Assembly: GCA_038213805.1 (NCBI GenBank)
Contig: JBBQSO010000004.1
Coordinates: 1-64,000, forward strand
Length of the DNA stretch: 64,000 nucleotides
Direction of reading: 5' to 3'
DNA from: Planctomycetota bacterium
GTDB taxonomy: Bacteria; Planctomycetota; UBA11346
Shown: piece by piece, positions 2 through 15,571 of the stretch
Layout of the letters: every line of letters starts with the position of its first letter
Position numbering within the stretch: the first letter of the stretch is position 1
Notes under the pieces: generated by a model
Seen by the model: the letters and a program-made list of their open reading frames with translations, nothing else
Database searches by the model: none
What the model was told of the DNA's origin: nothing
Made by a program: the position numbers and the translations under genes

Positions 2-196
2 GACTACATGGAGGCCTACGAGGCCATGCTGCGCGCCTGCAGCACCACCTGGGCGCCCTGGCACGTGGTCCCCGCCAATCGCAAGTGGTACCGTAATGCC
101 CTGGTCGCGCGCATCGTTCGCGAACGTCTCGAGGCACTTGCGCCGCGTTATCCCGAGCCGCCACCGGGGCTGGGCGCGATCACCGTAGACGATTGA
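2..196 (+). CDS. ppk2: Polyphosphate kinase 2 family protein, C-terminal fragment (5' end outside window)
   Basis: YMEAYEAML...STTWAPWHVVPANRKWYRNALVA is a typical PPK2 C-terminus. Confidence 0.85.
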   Translation, partial: DYMEAYEAMLRACSTTWAPWHVVPANRKWYRNALVARIVRERLEALAPRYPEPPPGLGAITVDD

Positions 197-214: not shown

Positions 215-2410
215 TCAGTGCCACGAGCGCGGGCCAGGATCCACTGGGGGCGCGAGTCCGGCCACCCGCAGCCGCCCCCACAATCGCACCGCGGCGACGC
301 GCGAGCGCACCTCCTCATCGCTGCCAGCGGGATGCGTATCCGTACCGTTTTCACAATCGCGGATCACATCGCGCCATATGTTCCAGGCGAGTGGCTGCAG
401 GGCATGCGCCGCCGCGATGTCCACGGCGCTGGTCGCCTGCTCGAATTCGGCACAGGCTTCGGCCTGTGCGAAGCGCAGGCCGAAGCCGAGGGTGCCGCCT
501 TCCGCATCCAGCCACGGGAACGTGCCTGGCGGTGCAGCCGCGGCGCAGCGGAGCGCAAGGAGTGCCACCCCGGAAGTGTCTCCATAGGCATGCACCAGGT
601 GGAGCAGTGGCGCATCCAGCTCCTGCCAGGGACGTCCGGTTGCGATCGACCAGCTGATTGCCGCATACATGTCCGCGGCGGCGTCCATGGTCGCCGGGAC
701 CGCGGCCATGGCAGGCACCGGCAGGCCCCGGCGCCCAGACAGGTAGGCGAGCCGGCGCGATAGCGCCGGCGGCAGTCGCGCGCTGAGTGCAGGCCGTGCC
801 GCGACGATCACCGCGACATGCTCATAACTGCCACGATCGAAGGGCGTGAAGCGCAGCACGCGCAGGAAGGCTTCAAGCTGGTCGTCCGCGCTGCCCGCTT
901 CGAGTGCCCAGCGCGCCTGGGTGACGGCGAGCATCCCGGTCCAGCCGAGCTTGCCCACTTCCGCTGCGATCACCTGGCGTTGGCCGTCGCTGTGCAAGTT
1001 CTCCCATTCCCCGCTGAGCAGCGTGCGCGCGTGGAGGTCGACCGTTTGCGGTTCAAGCGCCTGGGCGAGGCACTGCACCCGCACAGTTATGAAAGCGTCC
1101 TTGTGCAGGACCGCCGGATACAGCGTGCGCGTCGCGCCCCATGACGCGACGGCCACCAGCGGCCACATGAGCAGGCGCACTTTCGGCAGCAGGCCGTGTC
1201 GGACCCACAGACGCGTCGTCGGAGCCGCGAAGATCAAGCCGGCAGCAACCGCGGCCCAGATCAACCCCACCGTCGTGCCATAGCAGTTGTCGGTCATGAG
1301 ATGGACGCCGATGGCGACGCCCGCCGCCTGCCACGCGGCGCGCAGACCGGGATCACGCAGGCACCAGACGCGTTGCGCCAACAGGGCCAGCAGCGCGCAC
1401 AGCAGCACCAGCGCCACCGGCCCCCCATCGAGCAGAGTGTCGAGGAACTCGTTGTGCGCATGCATACCCCAGCCGCCGGTGGCTGTCAGGTGGCGGGCAT
1501 GCTCGGTATCCAGCCACTGCAGATGCAATGCCCCGTAATACCCATAGCCCCATGGAAAGGATGCTTGCGCCCCTTCCCAGGCTGAGTGGTAGATGTTGAT
1601 CCGCTCAAGCCGACCAGAAACGAGATCCGCGGTCGCCACGTGCCACGCAAACGCACCGGCGAGCGCGACCGCGAGCAGGGCGACCGACCAGCCAACGGCA
1701 GCGCTTCGGGCAAGCAGGTGCCGCCACAGGAACCACGCCGCGGCCGCGCCATAGGCCACCAGAATCCCGCGCCGCCCAGTGCCGATCGCAAGGACCAGCA
1801 GGCAGCCGAGTCCGACGGCAAGGATGGTGAGATCGCGTGCAGAAGGCCGGCGCCCGCCGCGCCAATCATGCGCGCACAGCACGAGCCACGCGAGCAGCGC
1901 AGGGCCCGCCGTGTTCATGAGGACGTTGACGTGACCGAACCCGAAGCAGGCGGTCTGCAGGGAACTGATGAGCCCGTCGTATCCGCTGACGCCGACGGCG
2001 AGCAGCGCCGCAGCCGCCGCACCGGTACCGAACAGGCGGAGCTGATCGCGCGGTTCGTCACGGCGCACCGCCAGAAAGAGGCACGTGGCCAGCGCAGCGG
2101 CGTGTTCCGCGACCCGCCACCATCCGCAAGGCAACGCTGCCGGAACCAGGGCCTGCACTGCGATCATCCAGACCTGCCAGACCAGCGCGAGCATCACAAA
2201 ACATTCCAGTCCGCCGTCCCGCAGGCGCAGCGCTGGCATCGCCGGCAACCACAGCAGGGGCGCCAGCACCAGGAGCAGGACGCTGGCGTCCACCTGCGAG
2301 AAGCGGAAGCAGCAGAACGATATGGTGAAGGCTACCGCGGCCCACAATAGGATCCCTGCAGGAAGCTGGCCAATCAGTGGGGCCGGGTGCAGGCGGGTGG
2401 GTTCAGGCAT
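215..2410 (-). CDS. O-antigen ligase / O-oligosaccharyltransferase (Wzy_C) family membrane protein with long C-terminal domain
   Basis: Many TM helices; TGRRG motif, ERINIY and HAHNEFLDTLLDGG Wzy_C signature. Confidence 0.75.
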   Translation of the reverse strand: MPEPTRLHPAPLIGQLPAGILLWAAVAFTISFCCFRFSQVDASVLLLVLAPLLWLPAMPALRLRDGGLECFVMLALVWQVWMIAVQALVPAALPCGWWRVAEHAAALATCLFLAVRRDEPRDQLRLFGTGAAAAALLAVGVSGYDGLISSLQTACFGFGHVNVLMNTAGPALLAWLVLCAHDWRGGRRPSARDLTILAVGLGCLLVLAIGTGRRGILVAYGAAAAWFLWRHLLARSAAVGWSVALLAVALAGAFAWHVATADLVSGRLERINIYHSAWEGAQASFPWGYGYYGALHLQWLDTEHARHLTATGGWGMHAHNEFLDTLLDGGPVALVLLCALLALLAQRVWCLRDPGLRAAWQAAGVAIGVHLMTDNCYGTTVGLIWAAVAAGLIFAAPTTRLWVRHGLLPKVRLLMWPLVAVASWGATRTLYPAVLHKDAFITVRVQCLAQALEPQTVDLHARTLLSGEWENLHSDGQRQVIAAEVGKLGWTGMLAVTQARWALEAGSADDQLEAFLRVLRFTPFDRGSYEHVAVIVAARPALSARLPPALSRRLAYLSGRRGLPVPAMAAVPATMDAAADMYAAISWSIATGRPWQELDAPLLHLVHAYGDTSGVALLALRCAAAAPPGTFPWLDAEGGTLGFGLRFAQAEACAEFEQATSAVDIAAAHALQPLAWNIWRDVIRDCENGTDTHPAGSDEEVRSRVAAVRLWGRLRVAGLAPPVDPGPRSWH

Positions 2411-2730
2411 GTGCGGGTGCTGTGGTGCCGGATGGTTGCCCGGAACACCGCCAGTCTACCCTCGAATACGTGCGCCGTCTGCGCGGGAAGCGAGGCGTTG
2501 CTGCCCATCCAGGTGGCACCTAGACACGATCCTGTTCGCAACTGTCGGGGAGATCGTGATGAGGGCGATGGCCGCGATGAACCATTCTTGGCGATGATCG
2601 CGGGGAGGAACAACGACGCAGTGCGAGTAAAAGCTTGGCGCATAGTATCTGCGACCGAGAGAGGGTTCACGCATTGATAAGTGAAAGTTGCGGACACCAC
2701 TTACCAGTCACGCTGCCCTGGGCCTGTCTG

Positions 2731-2765
2731 AAAACGAGAAGACCCCCGGCCGAAGCCGGGGGTCT
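2731..2765 (-). terminator. Intrinsic terminator of the pilin gene
   Basis: GACCCCCGGC-TTCG-GCCGGGGGTC stem with UUCG loop followed by TTCTCGTTTT on the minus strand. Confidence 0.8.
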
Positions 2766-2794
2766 GTGAACAGGCGTTTCCCGTTCGTCGTCGA

Positions 2795-3409
2795 TCAGCG
2801 CTTGTAGACGGTCCAGGTCGAGGCCGTGACCGAGAAGCCGGCGCCGAAGGGTCCGGTGGCGCTGGTGCAGCTCGTGGCGGTCGAGATGGTGGTAAAGGCC
2901 GAGCCCAGCAGGGTGCTGGGGTTGGTCGAAGCGGGCGCAGTCGCGTAGATGGTGCCGGCGGAATTGATGGCGAAGCAGCGCCGACCGATGCTGGCACCGC
3001 CGTCGCTCGGATAGCAGTCGGCGCAGAAGTTGGTCTCGTAGGTGCTGCCGATGCCGAACAGGTAGCTGTTGATGTTGGGGTTGGTGAAGTTCCAGGTCGG
3101 GGGCAGCAGGGACAGCGCGATCGTCGGGGTCACGCCCGCAGTGCCTGAAGCGCCGGACATGCCGGTGTAGGTGAAGGAGAAGTCGCCGATGCCGTTCGCA
3201 GCCGCGGTGCCGGCACCGCCGTTGTCGACATAGCCGCCAGCCTGGAACTGCACTTCGGCCGGGAAGACACCCGACTTCAGCGACGAGGCCGCAGCGGCCT
3301 CGTTCGAGCTGATGCGGCTCTCGAGAAGGTTGGGGATCGCGATGGCGGCGATGATGGCGATGATCGCGATGACGATCATGAGCTCGATGAGGGTGAAGCC
3401 TTTGCGCAT
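2795..3409 (-). CDS. Type IV pilin-like protein (prepilin N-terminal cleavage/methylation motif)
   Basis: MRKG|FTLIELMIVIAIIAIIAAIAIP class III signal peptide; AGGAG RBS before ATG 3409. Confidence 0.9.
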   Translation of the reverse strand: MRKGFTLIELMIVIAIIAIIAAIAIPNLLESRISSNEAAAASSLKSGVFPAEVQFQAGGYVDNGGAGTAAANGIGDFSFTYTGMSGASGTAGVTPTIALSLLPPTWNFTNPNINSYLFGIGSTYETNFCADCYPSDGGASIGRRCFAINSAGTIYATAPASTNPSTLLGSAFTTISTATSCTSATGPFGAGFSVTASTWTVYKR

Positions 3410-3481
3410 GGGATGTCTCCTGGTGGGACGGGTGGGATGCGATGGTGGGCCAGGATCTTCCCGGCACTGAGGAACCACTAG

Positions 3482-3497
3482 GCGCTCGTCGTGCCAG
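3482..3497 (-). promoter_or_regulatory. Candidate sigma54 (-24/-12) promoter of the pilin gene
   Basis: CTGGCACGACGAGCGC = GG-N10-GC with perfect TGGCACG, about 75 nt upstream of the ATG. Confidence 0.5.
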
Positions 3498-3602
3498 TCC
3501 CAGATCACCCTTTGAAGCGCGATAAGCAGGGACAAGAGACCCGGAAAAGAGGCAGAATGACACGCTTTCAACGATTCTTATCGACTCCCACGGGTGCCAG
3601 TC

Positions 3603-4553: not shown

Positions 4554-5570
4554 TCAGCCCCCGTACCCCGCCGGATTCCCGCTCTGCCACCGCCAGCCGT
4601 CCGCGCACATCTCCTCCAGCCCGCGCCGCGCCGACCAGCTGAGCAGCCGCTGCGCCAGCGCCGGATCCGCGTAGCAGGTGGCGATGTCGCCGGGCCGCCG
4701 CGGTCCGACCTCATACGGGATCGGCCTGCCCGAAGCCGCTGCGAGCGCCGCGATCATCTCCAACACCGAGTAGCCCCGGCCGGTGCCGAGATTCACCGCG
4801 ACCGCGCCCGCGAGGCCGTCCAGCGCCGCCAGGGCGGCGACATGCCCCTGCGCCAGGTCGACGACGTGGATGAAGTCGCGCACGCCGGTGCCATCCTTCG
4901 TCGGGTAGTCGTTGCCATGGATGGTCAGCTTGGCGCGCTTGCCCACGGCGACCTGCAGCAGGTAGGGCATGAGATTGTTCGGGATGCCCTTGGGATCCTC
5001 ACCGATCAGGCCGCTCGGGTGCGCTCCGCTGGGATTGAAGTAGCGCAGCAGCGCGATGCGCCAGCTCGGATCGGCCCTGGCCAGGTCACGACAGATGTCC
5101 TCGATCATCACCTTGGTGCGGCCGTAGGGGTTGGTCGCGCCCAGCCGCGCCTCCTCGGTGATCGGCACGCGCTCGGGATCGCCGTAGACGGTGGCCGAGG
5201 ACGAAAACACCAAGCGCCGGCAGCCCGCCGCCTGCATGCACTCGAGCAGGTGCAGCGTGCCGGTGAGGTTGTTGTGGTAGTAGCGCAGCGGCTGGGTCAC
5301 CGATTCGCCGACCGCCTTGAGCGCGGCGAAATGGATGACCGCATCCACCGGCTGCGCGGCGAAGGCCGCGGCCAGGGCCGGCTTGTCGAGCAGGTCGAGG
5401 CGGTGGAAGGCCACCGACTTGCCGGCGATACGCTCGACCCGTCGCAGCGCTTCGACCGAGCTGTTGACCAGGTTGTCGACCACCACCACGCGGTGGCCGC
5501 TGGCGAGCAGCTCGATGCAGGTGTGGGTGCCGATGTAGCCGGCACCGCCGGTGACGAGGATAGTGGACAT
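4554..5570 (-). CDS. galE: UDP-glucose 4-epimerase
   Basis: [33 protein letters not shown]; 338 aa. Confidence 0.97.
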
Positions 5571-5850
5571 GGGCGGTCTGGCCTTCGGGGGAGTCGGGCA
5601 CCTGGAACCGCCTGCCGCGTCCCGGGTCGGGCCTGGGCGCCAGGCCGATCCGCATGGTGGACCCTGCGCGAGGGCAGGCAACCGCTGGACCCACTGTGCT
5701 CCAACGTCTTGAGGTTGAACAGGGTATCATCTGGTTCGCCCTTCCCGTCCCGCGCCGGATGGCGATTGAGTGGGCGGCTCCCAGGGGGTAAGGTGATCGA
5801 GATGCGCAACTGGTACGCGAACGTTGTCCAGCAAGGTTCGGGGTCGTTCC

Positions 5851-8800
5851 ATGGCCGATGATGTTGCCAGCGTGGTGCTACGCGTGCAGGCCGGCCAGGC
5901 GACCGCCTTCATCGATCTGGTGCAGCGCCTGAACGCTGAACTGCGCGTGTGGATCGCGACCTATGCGCTCGACACCCTGATGATCGACGATGTGGCCCTG
6001 GCGGTGTGGTGCGCGGTACGCCGCGCGTCGGCCGACTGCCCGGCGGCGCCGATACCATGGATCCTCGCCTTTGCCGAGCGCGAACTCGCCCAGCGCATGA
6101 CCGCACTCGCGGACGATCCCCTGCGCCAGGTGCTGACGCACGCCGCCGCGGTCGAGCTGCGCGCCGCCGGGCAGCCCTCGACCACCGCCGCCCAGCACGT
6201 GCAGCGGCGCCTGACGATGATGCCGCCCATGGCGCGCCGCCTGCTCACCCGCCACTATGGCGAGCGCCTGCCGCTCGCGGACCTCGCGGTCGCGCAGGGC
6301 GTCAGCAACGAGGACGTCGCGGATTCGCTGGTCATGGCGCGCAGCACCCTCGATTGGCATCCGGACGCGATGTCCGGGCCGGTCGCGCACGGCCCGTTCA
6401 GCGGCGTGATCGAGGATTTCCTCAGTGGCGCCCTGGAAGGCGAGCCGCGTGAGCGCTTCGCCGTGCACCTTGCTGCCGATGCTGAGCGCTCCGCGACCTT
6501 CGTGCGCCAGGTCCGCCTCGACCTGATGCTGCGCGTCATGCTCGCCCCGGCGGTCGAGGGCGACGGCAAGGTCATGGCCCAGGCCGCCTGGGCCACGGTC
6601 GCTTCCGGCGACGGGTTGATGATCGCCCAGCCCCCTGAGCTGCGTCCGCGCCCAGCGGCGGCGGTCAGCCAGGGTTCCGATCGCACCCAGCGCCGACCGA
6701 CCTCGTCCGACCTCGCCATGCGCCGCACCAGCGACCCCGGGACCAGGCGCATCACCGCGAATGAACCGACCACGCGGCGCATCTCCGTCACCGAACTAGG
6801 CACGCGCCGCCATTCTCTCCAGCGCCTCGAGCCGGACGCCGGCGCTGGCCAGCAGCGCAAGTCGGGCTTGCTGGTGGTGTTTATCCTGGCTGGCCTGGTG
6901 CTCGCTGGCGGCGTGGCGGTGCTGCTCATCTGGGGACGCGGCGAGACTGCGCGCGCGCATCCGCTGGTCACCCAGGCCGATCCTGCACCACTCCCAACCG
7001 CGCCGCCCGCATCGATCGCGTCGGCGCCGGTCCCGGGGGAAGGGCACGGGCCGTCCGCCACCGGCGCGCGCACCGATGGCCCGGTCGTCTTCGTGCGCGG
7101 CATCAACTTCGGTGGCGACGCGGTGATCCTCGACCGCCACCGCTGGCTGGCCCAGGACCAGGCGGTGGCCGGCGGCCTGGCGCTCACCGCCGAAGCCGTC
7201 GCCACCAGCATCCCGCCGCTGAGCGGCGCGGGCTTCGACTTCGATGGCAAGGCGATGCTCGAGAGCGGTCTGAGCGCCAAAGAGGCGCCGCTGCGCCTGC
7301 GCCAGGCGCTGCCGGCCGGGACTTACGAGCTGATGCTGTGGGTCGCCGGTCCGGACGCGGGCAACGCGCTCGCCATCACCATCGGTGATCAGATCGGGAA
7401 CGTCGCTGCGGCGCCCTCGGCGACCTGGCGCAAGCTGGGTCCCTACCGCGTCACGCTCACGGGCGCCCAGCTCGACCTGGTGGTCGCCGGCCTCGGCCGC
7501 GCCCACCTCTCGGGCTTGACCCTGGCGACGGTCGGCAAGCCGAGTGCGCCACTGCCGCCGATCGCGCTGCTGATCTCGCCCAGCGACCGCTTCGCGCAGG
7601 ATTCGACGCGTTCTCTCGACCTGGTCGCCGATGTCATTCCCTCGGCGACGGCCATCACCGCAGTCGCTTTCATGGACGGCGACAAGCTGCTGGCCACGGT
7701 CAACGCCCCGCCATACCGGCTCTCCCTTCCTAAGCTGCCGCCCGGCACCTTCGCCTTCACCGTGGTCGCCACCGCTGCCGACGGTGGGCGCGCGGCATCC
7801 GCCGCGGTCACCGGCACCATCCTCGATCTGCCCGTCGGCACCGGCTCCATCCTGCGCGAGCGCTGGAACGGGCTGCCCGGCGAGTGGCTGCGCGATGCCC
7901 AGGCCAATCCCAAGCTACAAGGCCCGCCTGACCAGAGTTCGATGCTGACCAGCATGAAGATTCCGACCAATGATGGCTTCGACTTCGTCGACCGCCTACG
8001 CGGCTTCATCATTCCCCCGGTGAATGGCAGCTACACTTTCTGGATCGCCAGCGACGACAACGCCGAACTCTCTCTGAGCACGGACGAGGATCCCGCGCAC
8101 CTGCAGTTCCTGTGCTGGTGTGGCGTGGTCCGCGAGGAAGGCTTCGACGATCGTCCCGAGCAGCGTTCGAAGCCGCTCGTGCTTGAGGCCGGCCACCGCT
8201 ACTTCGTCGAGGTCCGCCACAAGCAGGGCCCGGGCGGCACGCACCTGGCGATCGGTTGGCAGCTGCCGGACGGCTACCGTGAGCGTCCCATCCCGGGCAG
8301 CCGCATCGCGCCCTGGACGGCTGAACGTGCACCGCTGGTGGCGGCCGCGCCGCCCGCATCCGCGCCGGTCCCTGCGCCCACCGCGCCAACGCCTGCGGCG
8401 GAGAAACCGCCGCGTTTCGCGCTCGGCATCGATTTCGGAGGAGATGCCGGGGTCATCGACGGCAACCACTGGCTGTCGCAGCGCCAGGCGGAGGAGCTCG
8501 AGGTGCCCCTGCTCACCACCACCGACACCTTCCTCAGCGACCTGCCGCTGGCCGATGCGCAGGTCGGCTTCGGTGGCCTGCGCCGCGACGTCGACCTCGA
8601 CGGGCGGCCCCTGACCATCGGCAAGGGCACCTTCAAGCGCGGCCTGTTCACCCATGCCCCGGCCACCATCCTCGTGCCGCTCGATGGCCGCAGCACCGGG
8701 TTCATCGCCGACGTGGGCGTCGAGTCCTACGTCGGTCAGGGCTCGGTGGCTTTCGAGGTGTACCTTGACGACGCCAAGGTCGCGGAATCCGGCGTGGTGC

Positions 8801-9333
8801 ACCTCGGCGACGAGGCCAAGCACCTCGAGGTGCCGCTCGGCAGGGCCAAGGTGATGAAACTGGTGGTCGGTGACGGCGGCGACGGCCTCGGTGGCGATCA
8901 CGCGATCTGGGGCGACGCGCGCCTGATCACTCCCCGTGTGGGCCTGTTGGGCGCCGCCGCCGGCCTCAAGGGCGCCAAGCGCAACGCCCAGAACTTCGCG
9001 ACCAAGCCGCCCAGCGAGGGCCCGCTCAAGGCCATGCTCAACAGCAGCTGTCAGGGCCGCAGCGAGACCCTGGCCTTCGGCCTCAAGGTCCCGAATGGCG
9101 TCTATGACGCCTGGTTCTGGGTCAGCGAGAACGCCACCACCGGCGCCCATCTCTTCGACCTTGAGGTCCAGGGCGTGGCCGCGAAGGGCCTGGGCGCACT
9201 GCCGACCGGCAGTTGGAGCAAGTACGGCCCGCTGCGCGTCAGCGTCGGCAATGGCGTGCTGTCCATCATCGCCAAGGCCGGCAAGGGCGTGCCGACGCTC
9301 AGTGGCATGGCGCTGTACGCGATCGATCCGTGA
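5851..9333 (+). CDS. ECF sigma-like / anti-sigma-like / TM / Ig-PA14-NPCBM multidomain protein
   Basis: N-terminal sigma2- and sigma4-like helices; IEDFLSGALEGEPRERFAVHL anti-sigma-like segment; TM helix; PA14 (RGFIIPPVNGSYTFWIASDD...EVRHKQGPG); NPCBM (FKRGLFTHA...DGLGGDHAIWGDARL). Confidence 0.75.
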   Translation: MADDVASVVLRVQAGQATAFIDLVQRLNAELRVWIATYALDTLMIDDVALAVWCAVRRASADCPAAPIPWILAFAERELAQRMTALADDPLRQVLTHAAAVELRAAGQPSTTAAQHVQRRLTMMPPMARRLLTRHYGERLPLADLAVAQGVSNEDVADSLVMARSTLDWHPDAMSGPVAHGPFSGVIEDFLSGALEGEPRERFAVHLAADAERSATFVRQVRLDLMLRVMLAPAVEGDGKVMAQAAWATVASGDGLMIAQPPELRPRPAAAVSQGSDRTQRRPTSSDLAMRRTSDPGTRRITANEPTTRRISVTELGTRRHSLQRLEPDAGAGQQRKSGLLVVFILAGLVLAGGVAVLLIWGRGETARAHPLVTQADPAPLPTAPPASIASAPVPGEGHGPSATGARTDGPVVFVRGINFGGDAVILDRHRWLAQDQAVAGGLALTAEAVATSIPPLSGAGFDFDGKAMLESGLSAKEAPLRLRQALPAGTYELMLWVAGPDAGNALAITIGDQIGNVAAAPSATWRKLGPYRVTLTGAQLDLVVAGLGRAHLSGLTLATVGKPSAPLPPIALLISPSDRFAQDSTRSLDLVADVIPSATAITAVAFMDGDKLLATVNAPPYRLSLPKLPPGTFAFTVVATAADGGRAASAAVTGTILDLPVGTGSILRERWNGLPGEWLRDAQANPKLQGPPDQSSMLTSMKIPTNDGFDFVDRLRGFIIPPVNGSYTFWIASDDNAELSLSTDEDPAHLQFLCWCGVVREEGFDDRPEQRSKPLVLEAGHRYFVEVRHKQGPGGTHLAIGWQLPDGYRERPIPGSRIAPWTAERAPLVAAAPPASAPVPAPTAPTPAAEKPPRFALGIDFGGDAGVIDGNHWLSQRQAEELEVPLLTTTDTFLSDLPLADAQVGFGGLRRDVDLDGRPLTIGKGTFKRGLFTHAPATILVPLDGRSTGFIADVGVESYVGQGSVAFEVYLDDAKVAESGVVHLGDEAKHLEVPLGRAKVMKLVVGDGGDGLGGDHAIWGDARLITPRVGLLGAAAGLKGAKRNAQNFATKPPSEGPLKAMLNSSCQGRSETLAFGLKVPNGVYDAWFWVSENATTGAHLFDLEVQGVAAKGLGALPTGSWSKYGPLRVSVGNGVLSIIAKAGKGVPTLSGMALYAIDP

Positions 9334-12893: not shown

Positions 12894-14120
12894 TCACTTG
12901 GGATGGTAGTCCTGGCGCACGTACTTCATCAGCTGGTCCGACGTCATGGCCTGCACCTGGAACTCGCGGGCGTTGTCCTGCTCCTTGTCGGAGCGGTCGC
13001 CGGCGACCAGGATGTCGACTCCCGGGCTGAGCTTCTCGCGCACGACGCCGCCCGTCTGGCGGATGAAGTTCTCGAGGTCCTCCTTGGTGTGGGGGGACTT
13101 GTTCTTCTTGGGATCGTCGAACTCGCCGGTGACCACGAAGACCTTGGGCCGGGTGGTGCTGAACACCGGATTGCCGAGATTGTCGTTCTTCGACAGCGGG
13201 AAGGCGCGGTTGTCGACCACCGACAGCACGCGGGCGGTGGCGATCTGGGCCTTGACCTCGATGACCTCGATCATGCCCTTCTCCTTATAACGGCCGCGCT
13301 CAAGGTTGAAGACCTCGAGGAGCAGGCCCGGGAAGACCCGGTCGGAGCTGCCGAGGTTGATCACCACGTAGGGCGAGCCGGGATTGACCTCGAGGATGTT
13401 GCCGACCGAGTCGAGATCCTTCAGCCAGTGCAGTTCGAGCTCGAGCAGCTGGCGGATGCGGTCCTCAAGCTGGCCGATCTTGGTGGCGCGGCGGCTGAAG
13501 TCCTCGCGGTTCTTGCGCTCGGCGGAGTCCTTCTCCTTGCCCAGACCGTCGATCTGGGTGTTCAGGCGGCTCTGGTCCTCCTGGAAGGCGGCCTCCTGCT
13601 CCTGGATCTTCTGCAGCTCCTTCTGGAGCTGCTGCTGGCGCTGCTGGATCGCCTCGTCGAGCTTGGGGTAGGCTTGGCGCGCGTCGCTGTCGTGCTCGGC
13701 CTTGAGGCCATCGATGCGGTCCTTGCTCGCGCTGACCGTGGCCAGGCCGAGCTTCCACACGCTGTCCATCAGCGGCTTGCCGTCGATGTCCTTGGTCTGC
13801 GCGGTGGCCACGCCGGACAGCACCTTGCCGTCCGACCCGTAGTAGAAGCGGTATTCATTGAGGTGCAGGTCGGCGCGCTGGATGCCGCGGCGGCGCGAGG
13901 CCAGCGCGGATTGCGCGGCGGCGATCTTGTTGCGCAGATCCGTGCTCTCGGTCATCAGCGCGTTCAGGGTGATCTTCTGGCCGTTCGGCTCATCGGGGTT
14001 GCCCTCGGTGATGGCCGTGATCTGCCCGCTCTCGTGGATGACGAGGAAGGTGAAGAGCAGGGTCACGAGCACCAGCACCACCAGTATGCTGATGAGCGCG
14101 GGATGGATGCGTCCGGCCAT
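12894..14120 (-). CDS. TM + coiled-coil + beta-barrel + BRCT-like domain protein (paralogue 2)
   Basis: N-terminal TM, Q/E/K heptad region, VVINLGSSDRVFPG, C-terminal VVTGEF...IRQTGGVVREKLSPGVDILVAG. Confidence 0.75.
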   Translation of the reverse strand: MAGRIHPALISILVVLVLVTLLFTFLVIHESGQITAITEGNPDEPNGQKITLNALMTESTDLRNKIAAAQSALASRRRGIQRADLHLNEYRFYYGSDGKVLSGVATAQTKDIDGKPLMDSVWKLGLATVSASKDRIDGLKAEHDSDARQAYPKLDEAIQQRQQQLQKELQKIQEQEAAFQEDQSRLNTQIDGLGKEKDSAERKNREDFSRRATKIGQLEDRIRQLLELELHWLKDLDSVGNILEVNPGSPYVVINLGSSDRVFPGLLLEVFNLERGRYKEKGMIEVIEVKAQIATARVLSVVDNRAFPLSKNDNLGNPVFSTTRPKVFVVTGEFDDPKKNKSPHTKEDLENFIRQTGGVVREKLSPGVDILVAGDRSDKEQDNAREFQVQAMTSDQLMKYVRQDYHPK

Positions 14121-14129
14121 GGGTGTTCC

Positions 14130-15245
14130 TTACTGCTTGCTGCGCGAGAAGTCGCCGAGATGGAAGAGCTGGCTCTGGATGAGCTGCTCCTCGCTGAGGA
14201 TGCTGATGCCGAGCTTGATCGCCTGCTGCAGGGCAGCATCGGAACGCTCGCCCGCGACCAGGTAATCCGTGTTCACCGACAGCTCAGCATCGTAGCGGCC
14301 GCCCGATTCGGTGATGAAGCGGCGCAGCTCGTCCTTGCTGAACTGGGAGAAGTCGCCACGGATGGCGAAACCCTTGACCTTCTCGGGGTCGTAGACCGGG
14401 TTGAACAGGCTGTCATTGGGGATGAACGGGTCGTTGGCGTCGGTCTCTTGGAGCACGCGCCCGACCGAAATCATCTCCTCGACGCGGGTGATCTCGATGG
14501 CGCCCTTGACGATGAGCTTGCCGCCGCGCCGGTTGAAGACGGTGAAGCGCGTGCCCTTGCGCAGGTTGTGCTTCTGGCCGCGGTTGATGACCACGAAGCC
14601 CTCGCTGGCGCTGGCCTGGACGATCTCACCCTTGCTGTGGATCTCCTTGGAGTCGATCTCGCGCTGGCGGATCAGCTCGCGCACGCGGTCCTCAAGCTGG
14701 ACGATGCGGTCGTCGAGGTCCTTGTTCTCCTTGCGGCCCTTCTTCTTGATGCCTTCGACCTCCTGCTTGAGGTCCTCGATCTTCTTGCGCAGCTGGGCAC
14801 GGCGGTCGTCGAAGTCGCGCTCGTTGGCGTGGGCGCGGGTCTCCTCCTGGGCGAGTTCGCCGCGGCGCTCCTTCATCTCCTTCAGCTTGTCGGCTGCTGT
14901 GGAGATCTCCTTGTCGATGTCCTCGGTGATGCCCTTGAGCGACACCTGGTTGCTGGCCACCAGACGCGCGACGTCGTCGATGGTCTGCTTGTCGTCGGCC
15001 TCGAGATCGTGGGCGAGCTGGACGCGCGCGCCGATCTGCTGCTCCAGGGGCTGCTTGGCGGCCTCCAGCTCGGCGGCGTACACGCGCAGGACCTTGATGT
15101 CGGCCTTGAGCTGCTCGTGCTGCTCGTGCAGCCCGGCCTTCTGCGCATGGCGGTACAGGAACAGGCCGAAGGTCGCCGCGGCGGCGAGCGAGAACACCAC
15201 GAACAGGCCGACCAGCCAGGCTGGCGTGCGTTGGCTATAGTCCAT
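14130..15245 (-). CDS. TM + coiled-coil + beta-barrel + BRCT-like domain protein (paralogue 1)
   Basis: N-terminal TM, long coiled coil, VVINRGQKHNLRKG, C-terminal ITESGGRYDAELSVNTDYLVAG...AIKLGISILSEEQL. Confidence 0.75.
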   Translation of the reverse strand: MDYSQRTPAWLVGLFVVFSLAAAATFGLFLYRHAQKAGLHEQHEQLKADIKVLRVYAAELEAAKQPLEQQIGARVQLAHDLEADDKQTIDDVARLVASNQVSLKGITEDIDKEISTAADKLKEMKERRGELAQEETRAHANERDFDDRRAQLRKKIEDLKQEVEGIKKKGRKENKDLDDRIVQLEDRVRELIRQREIDSKEIHSKGEIVQASASEGFVVINRGQKHNLRKGTRFTVFNRRGGKLIVKGAIEITRVEEMISVGRVLQETDANDPFIPNDSLFNPVYDPEKVKGFAIRGDFSQFSKDELRRFITESGGRYDAELSVNTDYLVAGERSDAALQQAIKLGISILSEEQLIQSQLFHLGDFSRSKQ

Positions 15246-15571
15246 AGAACGAGCTCCCTTGTGCTGACAGCGCCGAGCCAACGTAGAAAGGGCCCTCGGC
15301 CCCACAATTCCAGCCGCCGCGCCGGGGCCCTCCGTGTGTCAGTAGGGCGCGCGCGACCACGACTGGTCGGGACAGGGGGTTAGAGGGACCTCCAGGACAT
15401 CGGATTCCGGGGGCGCATCGCTATCCGCGTGCAGCCGTGCCAGAGCTGGGGTCCCTGGCAAGCATGGGTCGTACATCTGCAACGGCGGTGCGAGGCCGAC
15501 ATGCAGCCCCAACTTGCGGACCGGTTTTCTGGGCAATCCGAAGCCATCCCGTGCGACCCACAAGCGAGCCT

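Follow-up and report, generated by a model that had tools for sequence, protein, structure and literature searches.

A planctomycete membrane protein family joining a degenerate ECF sigma factor module, an anti-sigma domain and a putative glycan-binding outer part in one chain

The combination of a sigma factor, its inhibitor and a sensory part in one polypeptide is a known concept. In ECF52, as described for SCO4117 of Streptomyces coelicolor, a sigma factor of the extracytoplasmic function (ECF) type is followed by a zinc finger, a transmembrane helix, a Pro-rich region and a carbohydrate-binding domain, and its release by proteolysis has been proposed (PMC5826349); an NPCBM domain occurs in ECF52s1 (PMC7826278 supplement). 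IutY of Pseudomonas putida (ECF243) is a tested natural fusion of sigma and anti-sigma factor with one transmembrane helix, which is processed by Prc and RseP (PMC8999054). PhyR of the Alphaproteobacteria (ECF15) is a sigma mimic acting as anti-anti-sigma factor (PMC4598750, PMC4551977), and membrane proteins adjoining ECF51s9 have been proposed as anti-anti-sigma factors as well (PMC7826278 supplement). The anti-sigma factors of ECF46 carry carbohydrate-binding domains (PMC7826278). Here, we describe a gene from a 64,000-nucleotide stretch of a Planctomycetota bacterium of an uncultured lineage (assembly GCA_038213805.1, contig JBBQSO010000004.1, positions 1 to 64,000; in the following, the window), located at 5851..9333. 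It codes for a single chain of sigma2- and sigma4-like domains, an anti-sigma domain (ASD), one membrane helix and a large outer part. The fusion of sigma factor, inhibitor and sensor, which an earlier note on this DNA had recognised, is not a new design, given ECF52 and IutY; what appears to be new is a family-wide, selectively maintained pseudo-sigma.

Like ECF52 (also ECF48 and ECF53), the protein combines a sigma part, an ASD-type domain, one transmembrane helix, a Pro-rich stalk and carbohydrate-binding-type domains in one chain. However, ECF52 is described from Actinobacteria only, with a zinc-finger ASD, an extension of up to ~400 aa and a sigma factor shown to act, whereas the present protein belongs to Planctomycetota, comprises a zinc-free ASD and a multi-lectin outer part of ~800 aa, has lost its promoter contacts and has a separate origin from local ECF/FecR pairs, as judged from the tree presented below, which comprises no ECF52 sequence. 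With PhyR it would share a sigma2/sigma4-like domain without sigma action, masked in cis by a fused domain, and the principle of partner switching. In contrast to this protein, PhyR is described as soluble, masked by a receiver domain, binding NepR and encoded beside its sigma factor; neither the C-terminal receiver domain nor the location beside its own sigma and anti-sigma factor is found here, where a class I ASD would serve as mask, the chain spans the membrane and carries outer domains that putatively bind glycans, and the genes are solitary. IutY resembles the family as a sigma/anti-sigma fusion with one membrane helix, and a FecR domain persists in 7 of the 56 homologues, but its sigma factor is active and siderophore-responsive, while here the sigma part is degenerate and the outer domains are lectin-like. 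The putative anti-anti-sigma factors adjoining ECF51s9 are likewise membrane proteins and combine partial sigma domains with a sensing domain outside (PMC7826278); they differ in being actinobacterial, in having a PknH-like outer domain and often no sigma2, and in lying beside their own ECF gene, with no fused ASD described. The ancestral layout is represented by ECF46-like (TIGR02989) sigma factors with a FecR-type anti-sigma factor, in this genome the C58 pair, whose members are the nearest free relatives in the tree; here sigma and anti-sigma factor are two genes and the sigma factor, which may be called ECF46-like, is intact. By its sequence, the protein therefore belongs neither to ECF52 nor to PhyR nor, as far as residues can tell, to the functional ECF sigma factors; it is built like ECF52 and probably works like PhyR.

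Structure and profile comparisons confirmed that residues 1-250 comprise sigma2- and sigma4-like folds and a homologue of class I anti-sigma domains. The AlphaFold model of residues 1-260, based on 56 sequences, was compact and confident (pLDDT 93.9, pTM 0.91). Its top structural matches were ECF sigma factors, with 5wuq_A at a Z of 13.1 (rmsd 1.7 Å over 91 residues) and 2o7g_B at 13.0 (1.7 Å over 83 residues), both in region 2, while the sigma4-like part matched region 4 of sigmaE (2h27_D) with a Z of 5.7 (2.6 Å over 65 residues). The sigma regions 2 and 4 seen by the earlier note at the N-terminus, with quoted motifs that are all present in the translation, thus have structural counterparts in ECF sigma factors (Z 13 and 5.7). 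With Foldseek, no match of the 1-260 model reached E<=0.001, but ECF sigma factors made up most of ranks 1-16; both fold searches inform on the sigma part and not on the ASD part. When both sigma domains were aligned together to solved sigma/anti-sigma complexes, the rmsd amounted to 11-16 Å, so their arrangement differs from that in the solved complexes. A family profile search found AlgU (E 4e-17) and sigmaE (E 4e-14), and the traits of group IV ECF sigma factors are present, namely sigma2 and sigma4 folds, a short linker and no sigma3. Single-sequence matches were weak: on the N-terminus alone, Pfam reported Sigma70_r4_2 with E 0.022 and zf-HC2 with E 0.2, while Sigma70_r2 gave no match at E<=10. 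TIGR02989 matched residues 19-167 (E 5e-5) with 23 bits, below its cut-off of 124.55; the three fused copies of the genome reached 21-28.5 bits compared to 108.6 for the C58 sigma factor.

The anti-sigma-like segment proposed by the earlier note was identified through its free relatives. In the AlphaFold model it forms helices at residues 182-191, 197-209, 211-231 and 238-251, i.e. a three-helix bundle and a fourth helix. A profile of the fused ASD (residues 180-245) found, in this genome, the three fused genes and five non-fused open reading frames (ORFs), all five of which start just behind an ECF gene, at most 50 nt from its end. The comparison of the fused ASD with 10 free ASDs by hhalign gave a probability of 97.6 (E 3e-12). 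The best free relative in the genome is the C58 anti-sigma factor (ASD, transmembrane helix, FecR, PA14), which matches DUF4880 weakly. A zinc-finger motif HxxxCxxC after the sigma part was found in 0 of 57 proteins. The membrane helix, a single hydrophobic segment as expected by the earlier note, lies at the matching place in 55 of 56 fused proteins.

The state of the sigma part was judged from residues with known functions in sigmaE. There, R171, S172, F175 and R176 contact the -35 element, R176 being conserved across the aligned group IV sigma factors (PMC1540707), F64, W73 and N80 act in melting (PMC6648896), and R149 and R178 contact the ASD of RseA (PMC7406223). For the comparison, 56 fused proteins were set against 29 free relatives, kin that are not independent of each other, for which reason the counts are given without rank-test p-values; the sigmaE numbering was mapped through the AlgU alignment, with an offset of one deduced from matching residue types. 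P0086 (a different, intact sigma fusion), P0085 (garbled) and the N-terminally short P0061 and P0065 were left out, and P0059, a fused-type fragment, was taken off the free set. At the positions of F64, W73, I77 and N80 this protein has C, W, F and R, and at those of R171, S172, F175 and R176 it has A, D, V and M, with R178 kept. Of the -10 residues, F64 is kept in 9 fused vs 24 free proteins, I77 in 14 vs 26 and N80 in 3 vs 24, W73 alone remaining frequent (39 vs 29); for the -35 residues the values are 0 vs 11 (R171), 16 vs 17 (F175) and 5 vs 23 (R176). The region 2.2 Gln (Q52 in AlgU) is kept in 5/56 fused but 25/29 free proteins. Four of six key residues are retained in only one fused protein compared to 28 of the 29 free ones. 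The charge changed accordingly on both DNA-facing surfaces, the mean in region 2.4 being +0.5 in fused and +4.5 in free proteins and the net charge of the helix-turn-helix ranging from -4 to +2 (mean -1) vs +1 to +9 (mean +4), with -4 in this protein. Pfam Sigma70_r2 matched 0/56 fused vs 24/25 free proteins, and Sigma70_r4_2 matched 5/56 homologues, all under the cut-off. Since other clusters of sigma/zf-HC2 fusions in the Atlas keep the Sigma70_r2 match in 91-98% of their members, fusion alone does not erase it.

The residues that would hold the ASD behaved differently, the equivalents of R149 and R178 being present in 53/56 and 54/56 fused proteins. Furthermore, the family acquired invariants of its own, with D89 in 56/56 and the residues of a DW pair in 45 and 47 of 56. 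The ratio of nonsynonymous to synonymous substitutions (dN/dS), determined for two orthologue pairs with small counts, was lowest in sigma4 (0.06 and 0.08), whereas sigma2 gave 0.23-0.28 and the ASD 0.26-0.39, compared to 0.15 for pgk as control. By these ratios sigma4 is under strong purifying selection, and the sigma part is to be described as disabled, not decaying. Altogether, the residue patterns show that the sigma part lost the promoter-reading residues yet kept the ASD-holding surface, with binding itself being modelled. The earlier note had favoured an active sigma factor that is released when a glycan binds, which runs against this family-wide loss of -10 and -35 contact residues; its fallback, a pseudo-sigma decoy, fits the evidence better.

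While a word-index protein search with residues 1-370 returned only the query, an exhaustive search recovered the family with 88 proteins, of which 58 comprise 390-1828 aa. Stop-free matches spanning sigma part and ASD amounted to 40 and were found in 12 of 48 genomes of the taxonomic family, namely with 1-7 per genome in all 11 genomes of genus g1 and one in G022; the alignment used for this 48-genome search was built from many of the same 40 matches. All 40 keep the order sigma2-linker-sigma4-ASD at 20-35% identity. Homologues are thus not consistently split into two genes, and the single polypeptide proposed by the earlier note is real. In a 401-genome sample of the phylum, with six candidates scored per genome, no stop-free fusion was seen outside genus g1, and the nearest named records are metagenome-assembled genomes of Planctomycetota (L055, L056). 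In the tree, the sigma domains of the 56 fused proteins group together in a single clade (support 0.969), which is nested within a clade of free sigma factors including C58 (0.985). In-frame split sigma/ASD pairs with one stop occur in G051, G189 and G327, and at L052:6109-6115 the TAG of an ECF sigma gene directly precedes the in-frame ATG of a FecR-type anti-sigma gene, one step from fusion. Judged by tree and homology, these data show that the fused family arose from an ECF sigma gene and a downstream FecR-type anti-sigma gene. The earliest branches of the fused clade, P0036 and P0041, keep FRAR in helix 4.2, which suggests from sequence that fusion came first and the loss of contacts later, with long-branch attraction being possible for these two.

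The genome (G000) encodes about 50 ECF-like sigma genes (52 TIGR02989 matches) and two fused paralogues of the gene. One (L001, C1:87843-90323, minus strand) shares 55% identity with it in the N-terminal 255 aa and stops behind PA14, the other (L002, C1:115932-118355, minus strand) contains a single malectin-like copy and, at the C-terminus, a domain without assignment. Two tandem genes at C70:11557-16040 (plus strand, L003) comprise a short Arg-rich cytoplasmic tail, a transmembrane helix and the same malectin-like and Ig domains, followed by leucine-rich repeats, and contain neither sigma part nor ASD.

A complex of the pseudo-sigma (residues 1-172) with the free C58 ASD was modelled with a score of 0.81 compared to 0.00 for the best control, contacts agreeing by at least 74% and the partner pLDDT being at least 77; in a benchmark, the mark for complexes was reached by 116/157 solved pairs and 2/215 mismatched pairs. 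The modelled interface includes the family-conserved L91, Y136, R164 and 167-170 as well as the former functional positions 50, 157, 158 and 161, and L91, V94 and L95 of the linker helix touch the ASD. A pairing of R164 with an acid like D11 of RseA was rejected, since that ASD position is A, S or N in most fused proteins and R164 faces ASD helix 4 in the model.

Based on these data, we tentatively favour, at a little short of an even chance, a constitutive receptor for glycans with a pseudo-sigma/ASD module that would work, in the manner of PhyR, by exchanging partners. Having originated from an ECF sigma gene fused with its downstream FecR-type anti-sigma gene, such an inner-membrane receptor would be made constitutively and at rest would keep the pseudo-sigma closed on its own ASD, as modelled. 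Binding of a glycan by the periplasmic malectin/PA14/NPCBM array may open the module, either through intramembrane proteolysis or through phosphorylation of the RRx[ST] motifs in the linker, of which five were observed compared to 0.45 expected from shuffles (family-wide 29 vs 14); three M50 protease genes and 37 kinase-like ORFs in the genome are possible triggers. The opened module would then swap partners with ordinary ECF/ASD pairs. Either the freed pseudo-sigma would titrate anti-sigma factors and thereby release a real sigma factor, as PhyR does, or the uncovered ASD would capture a real sigma factor; the constraint on sigma4, the strongest of all parts, tips the balance slightly towards titration. 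Through several paralogues that differ in their outer domains, signals from several glycans would converge on common ECF outputs. Held with somewhat more reserve is the wider proposal of a family of one-piece, membrane-spanning anti-anti-sigma receptors, each a sigma mimic with a built-in anti-sigma mask and interchangeable glycan-binding outer domains, present in up to seven copies per genome and evolved from an ECF/anti-sigma pair by loss of a stop codon and then of DNA contacts, with P0036 and P0041 as extant intermediates.

Several observations weigh against the partner-switching receptor. The complex model represents a textbook type of pair, the C58 ASD is a cousin of the own ASD (37% identity), and close cousins passed the same mark in 10/12 colicin pairs; the model therefore points to a kept surface and not to binding in trans. 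G008 (83% complete) and G009 (89%) have retained two fused genes each but lack a close C58-type sigma factor, the best reaching 28% and 33% compared to 59-61% in G004 and G005, which weakens a specific link to the C58 pair; they have three and one other free ASDs from other ECF/ASD pairs. Unlike phyR, no fused gene examined is adjoined by a cognate sigma gene, and 34 of 55 linkers in the family lack RRx[ST]. As to the loss of function, this copy keeps the acidic DD (D46-D47) and a net charge of -3 in region 2.2, like free sigma factors (mean -3.1), so that it may still bind core. Free sigma factors of this clade are themselves loose at R171, S172 and R173 (11, 9 and 6 of 29), and with non-independent kin the residue counts reflect one loss event plus its upkeep.

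Some of these points would equally suit a sigma/ASD module that is permanently locked and has turned into a new cytoplasmic domain of an envelope protein that binds glycans. There it would act as an anchor or would dock some partner, and a connection to ECF pairs would not exist. The conserved residues of both halves sit at their mutual interface, the joint arrangement of sigma2 and sigma4 is unlike that of solved complexes, genomes without the sister sigma factor retain fused genes, and the two C70 genes combine the same malectin-like and Ig outer part with a short Arg-rich tail in place of the sigma part. However, sigma4 seems more constrained than the ASD it would bind, as far as the small counts allow, and the complete domain order is preserved in all stop-free matches in spite of their low identity; we regard a locked module as unlikely, though worth keeping in mind. 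Still less probable appears a divergent active ECF sigma factor, as the earlier note had it and as is the view of ECF52 and IutY; freed by proteolysis, it would depend on relaxed promoters, on an activator or on being modified, for instance phosphorylated. It would be in line with the intact sigma folds, with W73 and the region 2.2 acids of this copy, with FRAR in the earliest branches, with the divergent sigma4 of some ECF52 members (PMC7826278) and with EcfP, which lacks the DAED motif and works after phosphorylation (PMC8999054). On the other hand, the basic charge is gone from both DNA-facing surfaces, four of the six key residues remain in a single fused protein, and no shared ECF-type upstream motif exceeded shuffled sequences. 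An EcfP-type phosphorylation at the DAED site was rejected, as a Ser/Thr at this position is present in only 2-3 of 56 proteins and not conserved.

Considered very improbable is a pseudo-sigma that, once released, attaches to core RNA polymerase but reads no promoters, and in this way competes with other sigma factors and lowers transcription. In its favour, this copy retains D46-D47 together with the sigma2 scaffold, and no part is better conserved than sigma4, which binds the beta flap. Against it, only 15/56 fused homologues have the fourth acid of the region 2.2 motif and 5/56 the conserved Gln. We know of no precedent for such competition by a released pseudo-sigma. An assembly artefact or decaying relic, suggested by a frameshift downstream of the membrane helix in the G003 orthologue, has a negligible probability: the same single-base indels occur in the neighbouring galE-like, glycosylase and tsaD genes of G003, one contig of the public run X1, possibly the source sample, spans 5400-8474 without a difference, and the junction of sigma part and ASD is spanned gap-free (6347-6645) by a contig of run X3, which belongs to a different study. 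Together with purifying selection and the 40 stop-free matches in 12 genomes, these contigs refute it. Many single-base indels over several genes were seen at L037 (G003:C2), as if from error-prone assembly.

The positions of all features are compiled in Table 1. In the outer half, the Ig-like, PA14 and NPCBM domains named by the earlier note were recovered by Pfam, the Ig-like one (Big_7) weakly. Its two beta-sandwich repeats proved to be two copies of one domain of ~146 aa, but they are not simple repeats, as the second copy is split around NPCBM. This domain is present in 35 fetched proteins, and NPCBM splits the last copy here and in nine others (P0003, P0023, P0025, P0029-P0032, P0035, P0042). 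The model of copy 1 (pLDDT 93.5) matched 6d50_A, the C-terminal domain of Bacteroides beta-glucuronidases (Z 14.3, rmsd 3.1 Å, 140 aligned), the FERONIA entry 6a5e_B (Z 12.7) and malectin 2k46 (Z 9.7), while Pfam Malectin matched 2 of 25 copies. The beta-glucuronidase and FERONIA domains are of the malectin/CBM57 type. A scan of 56 homologues found PA14 in 25, NPCBM in 10, FecR in 7, CBM6 in 5 and LamG in 4, and from this composition the outer array presumably binds glycans. P0052 and P0064 (L054-type branch) carry an arabinofuranosidase-B-like outer domain in place of the lectin array, and P0061 carries a canonical malectin.

Table 1. Features of the fused gene and its upstream region (positions in the window)
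Feature	Position	Strand	Remarks
Housekeeping (sigma70-type) promoter-like site	5766..5794	+	TTGAGT-17-TAAGGT; 85 nt before ATG
Whole gene	5851..9333	+	1160 aa; ATG 5851 to TGA 9333, one open frame
Sigma2-like domain	5851..6111	+	aa 1-87; W73 and acidic DD kept; without Q52 (AlgU), F64, I77, N80 equivalents
Sigma2-sigma4 linker helix	6112..6183	+	aa 88-111; D89 in 56/56 fused proteins
Sigma4-like domain	6184..6360	+	aa 112-170; acidic recognition helix; family DW motif
Zinc-free class I anti-sigma domain (ASD)	6388..6600	+	aa 180-250; near-invariant RQxR in helix 4
Arg/Ser/Thr-rich cytoplasmic linker	6613..6864	+	aa 255-338; five RRx[ST] motifs
Single transmembrane helix	6874..6930	+	aa 342-360; hydrophobic
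Malectin-like beta-sandwich copy 1	7081..7533	+	aa 411-561; after Pro/Ala-rich stalk
Bacterial Ig-like domain (Big_7)	7570..7764	+	core aa 574-638; weak Pfam match
PA14 domain	7978..8289	+	Pfam core aa 710-813; E 1e-9
Malectin-like copy 2, N-terminal part	8413..8505	+	aa 855-885
NPCBM/NEW2 domain	8524..8925	+	aa 892-1025; E 8e-36; inserted into malectin-like copy 2
Malectin-like copy 2, C-terminal part	8953..9324	+	aa ~1035-1158

An in-frame TTG lies upstream at 5824, yet the homologues begin at the Met of 5851. On one side the gene adjoins a galE-like gene in divergent orientation and on the other a methylpurine glycosylase gene in convergent orientation, so it stands alone. In the ORF lists of 22 loci, no conserved neighbour or target operon of fused genes was seen, nor a conserved adjoining sigma, kinase or protease gene, the lists having been used without family scans. 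A pattern TTG[ACG]NN-16..18-TANNNT was found upstream of 9/29 fused genes (shuffles: mean 0.63, maximum 5 in 500), eight of the nine sites lying 85-104 nt upstream, but of only 1/45 free ECF genes; it was picked by eye after a motif search, and the site at this gene is under the threshold of the strict scan, which found no promoter or terminator at the locus. A search for a shared ECF-type motif upstream of 27 fused genes gave a best gapped pair of 6 compared to 4-5 in shuffles. A putative housekeeping-type promoter without a shared ECF motif fits constitutive sensors rather than self-amplifying sigma factors. In G007, two tandem fused-family genes (~1400 and ~1500 aa; L042:6841-15757, minus strand) each have their own sigma70-like site.

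Elsewhere in the window, two tandem membrane-anchored coiled-coil proteins with C-terminal BRCT-like domains (E 5e-4 and 3e-12) are encoded at 12894-15305 (minus strand), syntenic in G003. At 215-3571 (minus strand), a pilin with an N-methyl motif lies beside an O-antigen-ligase-like (Wzy_C) gene, which suggests pilin glycosylation; the matching region of G003 has two pilin copies.

In the sources covered, no description of a degenerate sigma factor fused to its own ASD in planctomycetes was found, subscription papers and the 2020 planctomycete ECF survey lying outside this coverage. PhyR is the established example of sigma mimicry, which for a few other proteins is no more than a proposal; the family is an apparent second case. 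If the reading holds, sigma mimicry would have arisen a second time, independently of PhyR, and here with a direct connection to periplasmic glycans. The history of the family appears readable from a split pair via an in-frame pair and a fusion with a partly intact sigma part to a fusion with an acidic one, and a testable partner pair is present in the same genome. The family also gives a warning: a sigma/anti-sigma fusion listed as 'ECF with C-terminal extension' is not necessarily an active sigma factor, and such proteins score under the Pfam sigma cut-offs and are missed by ECF surveys. Even if the module were permanently locked, it would still be a clear case of a transcription factor complex reused as a domain of a membrane protein.

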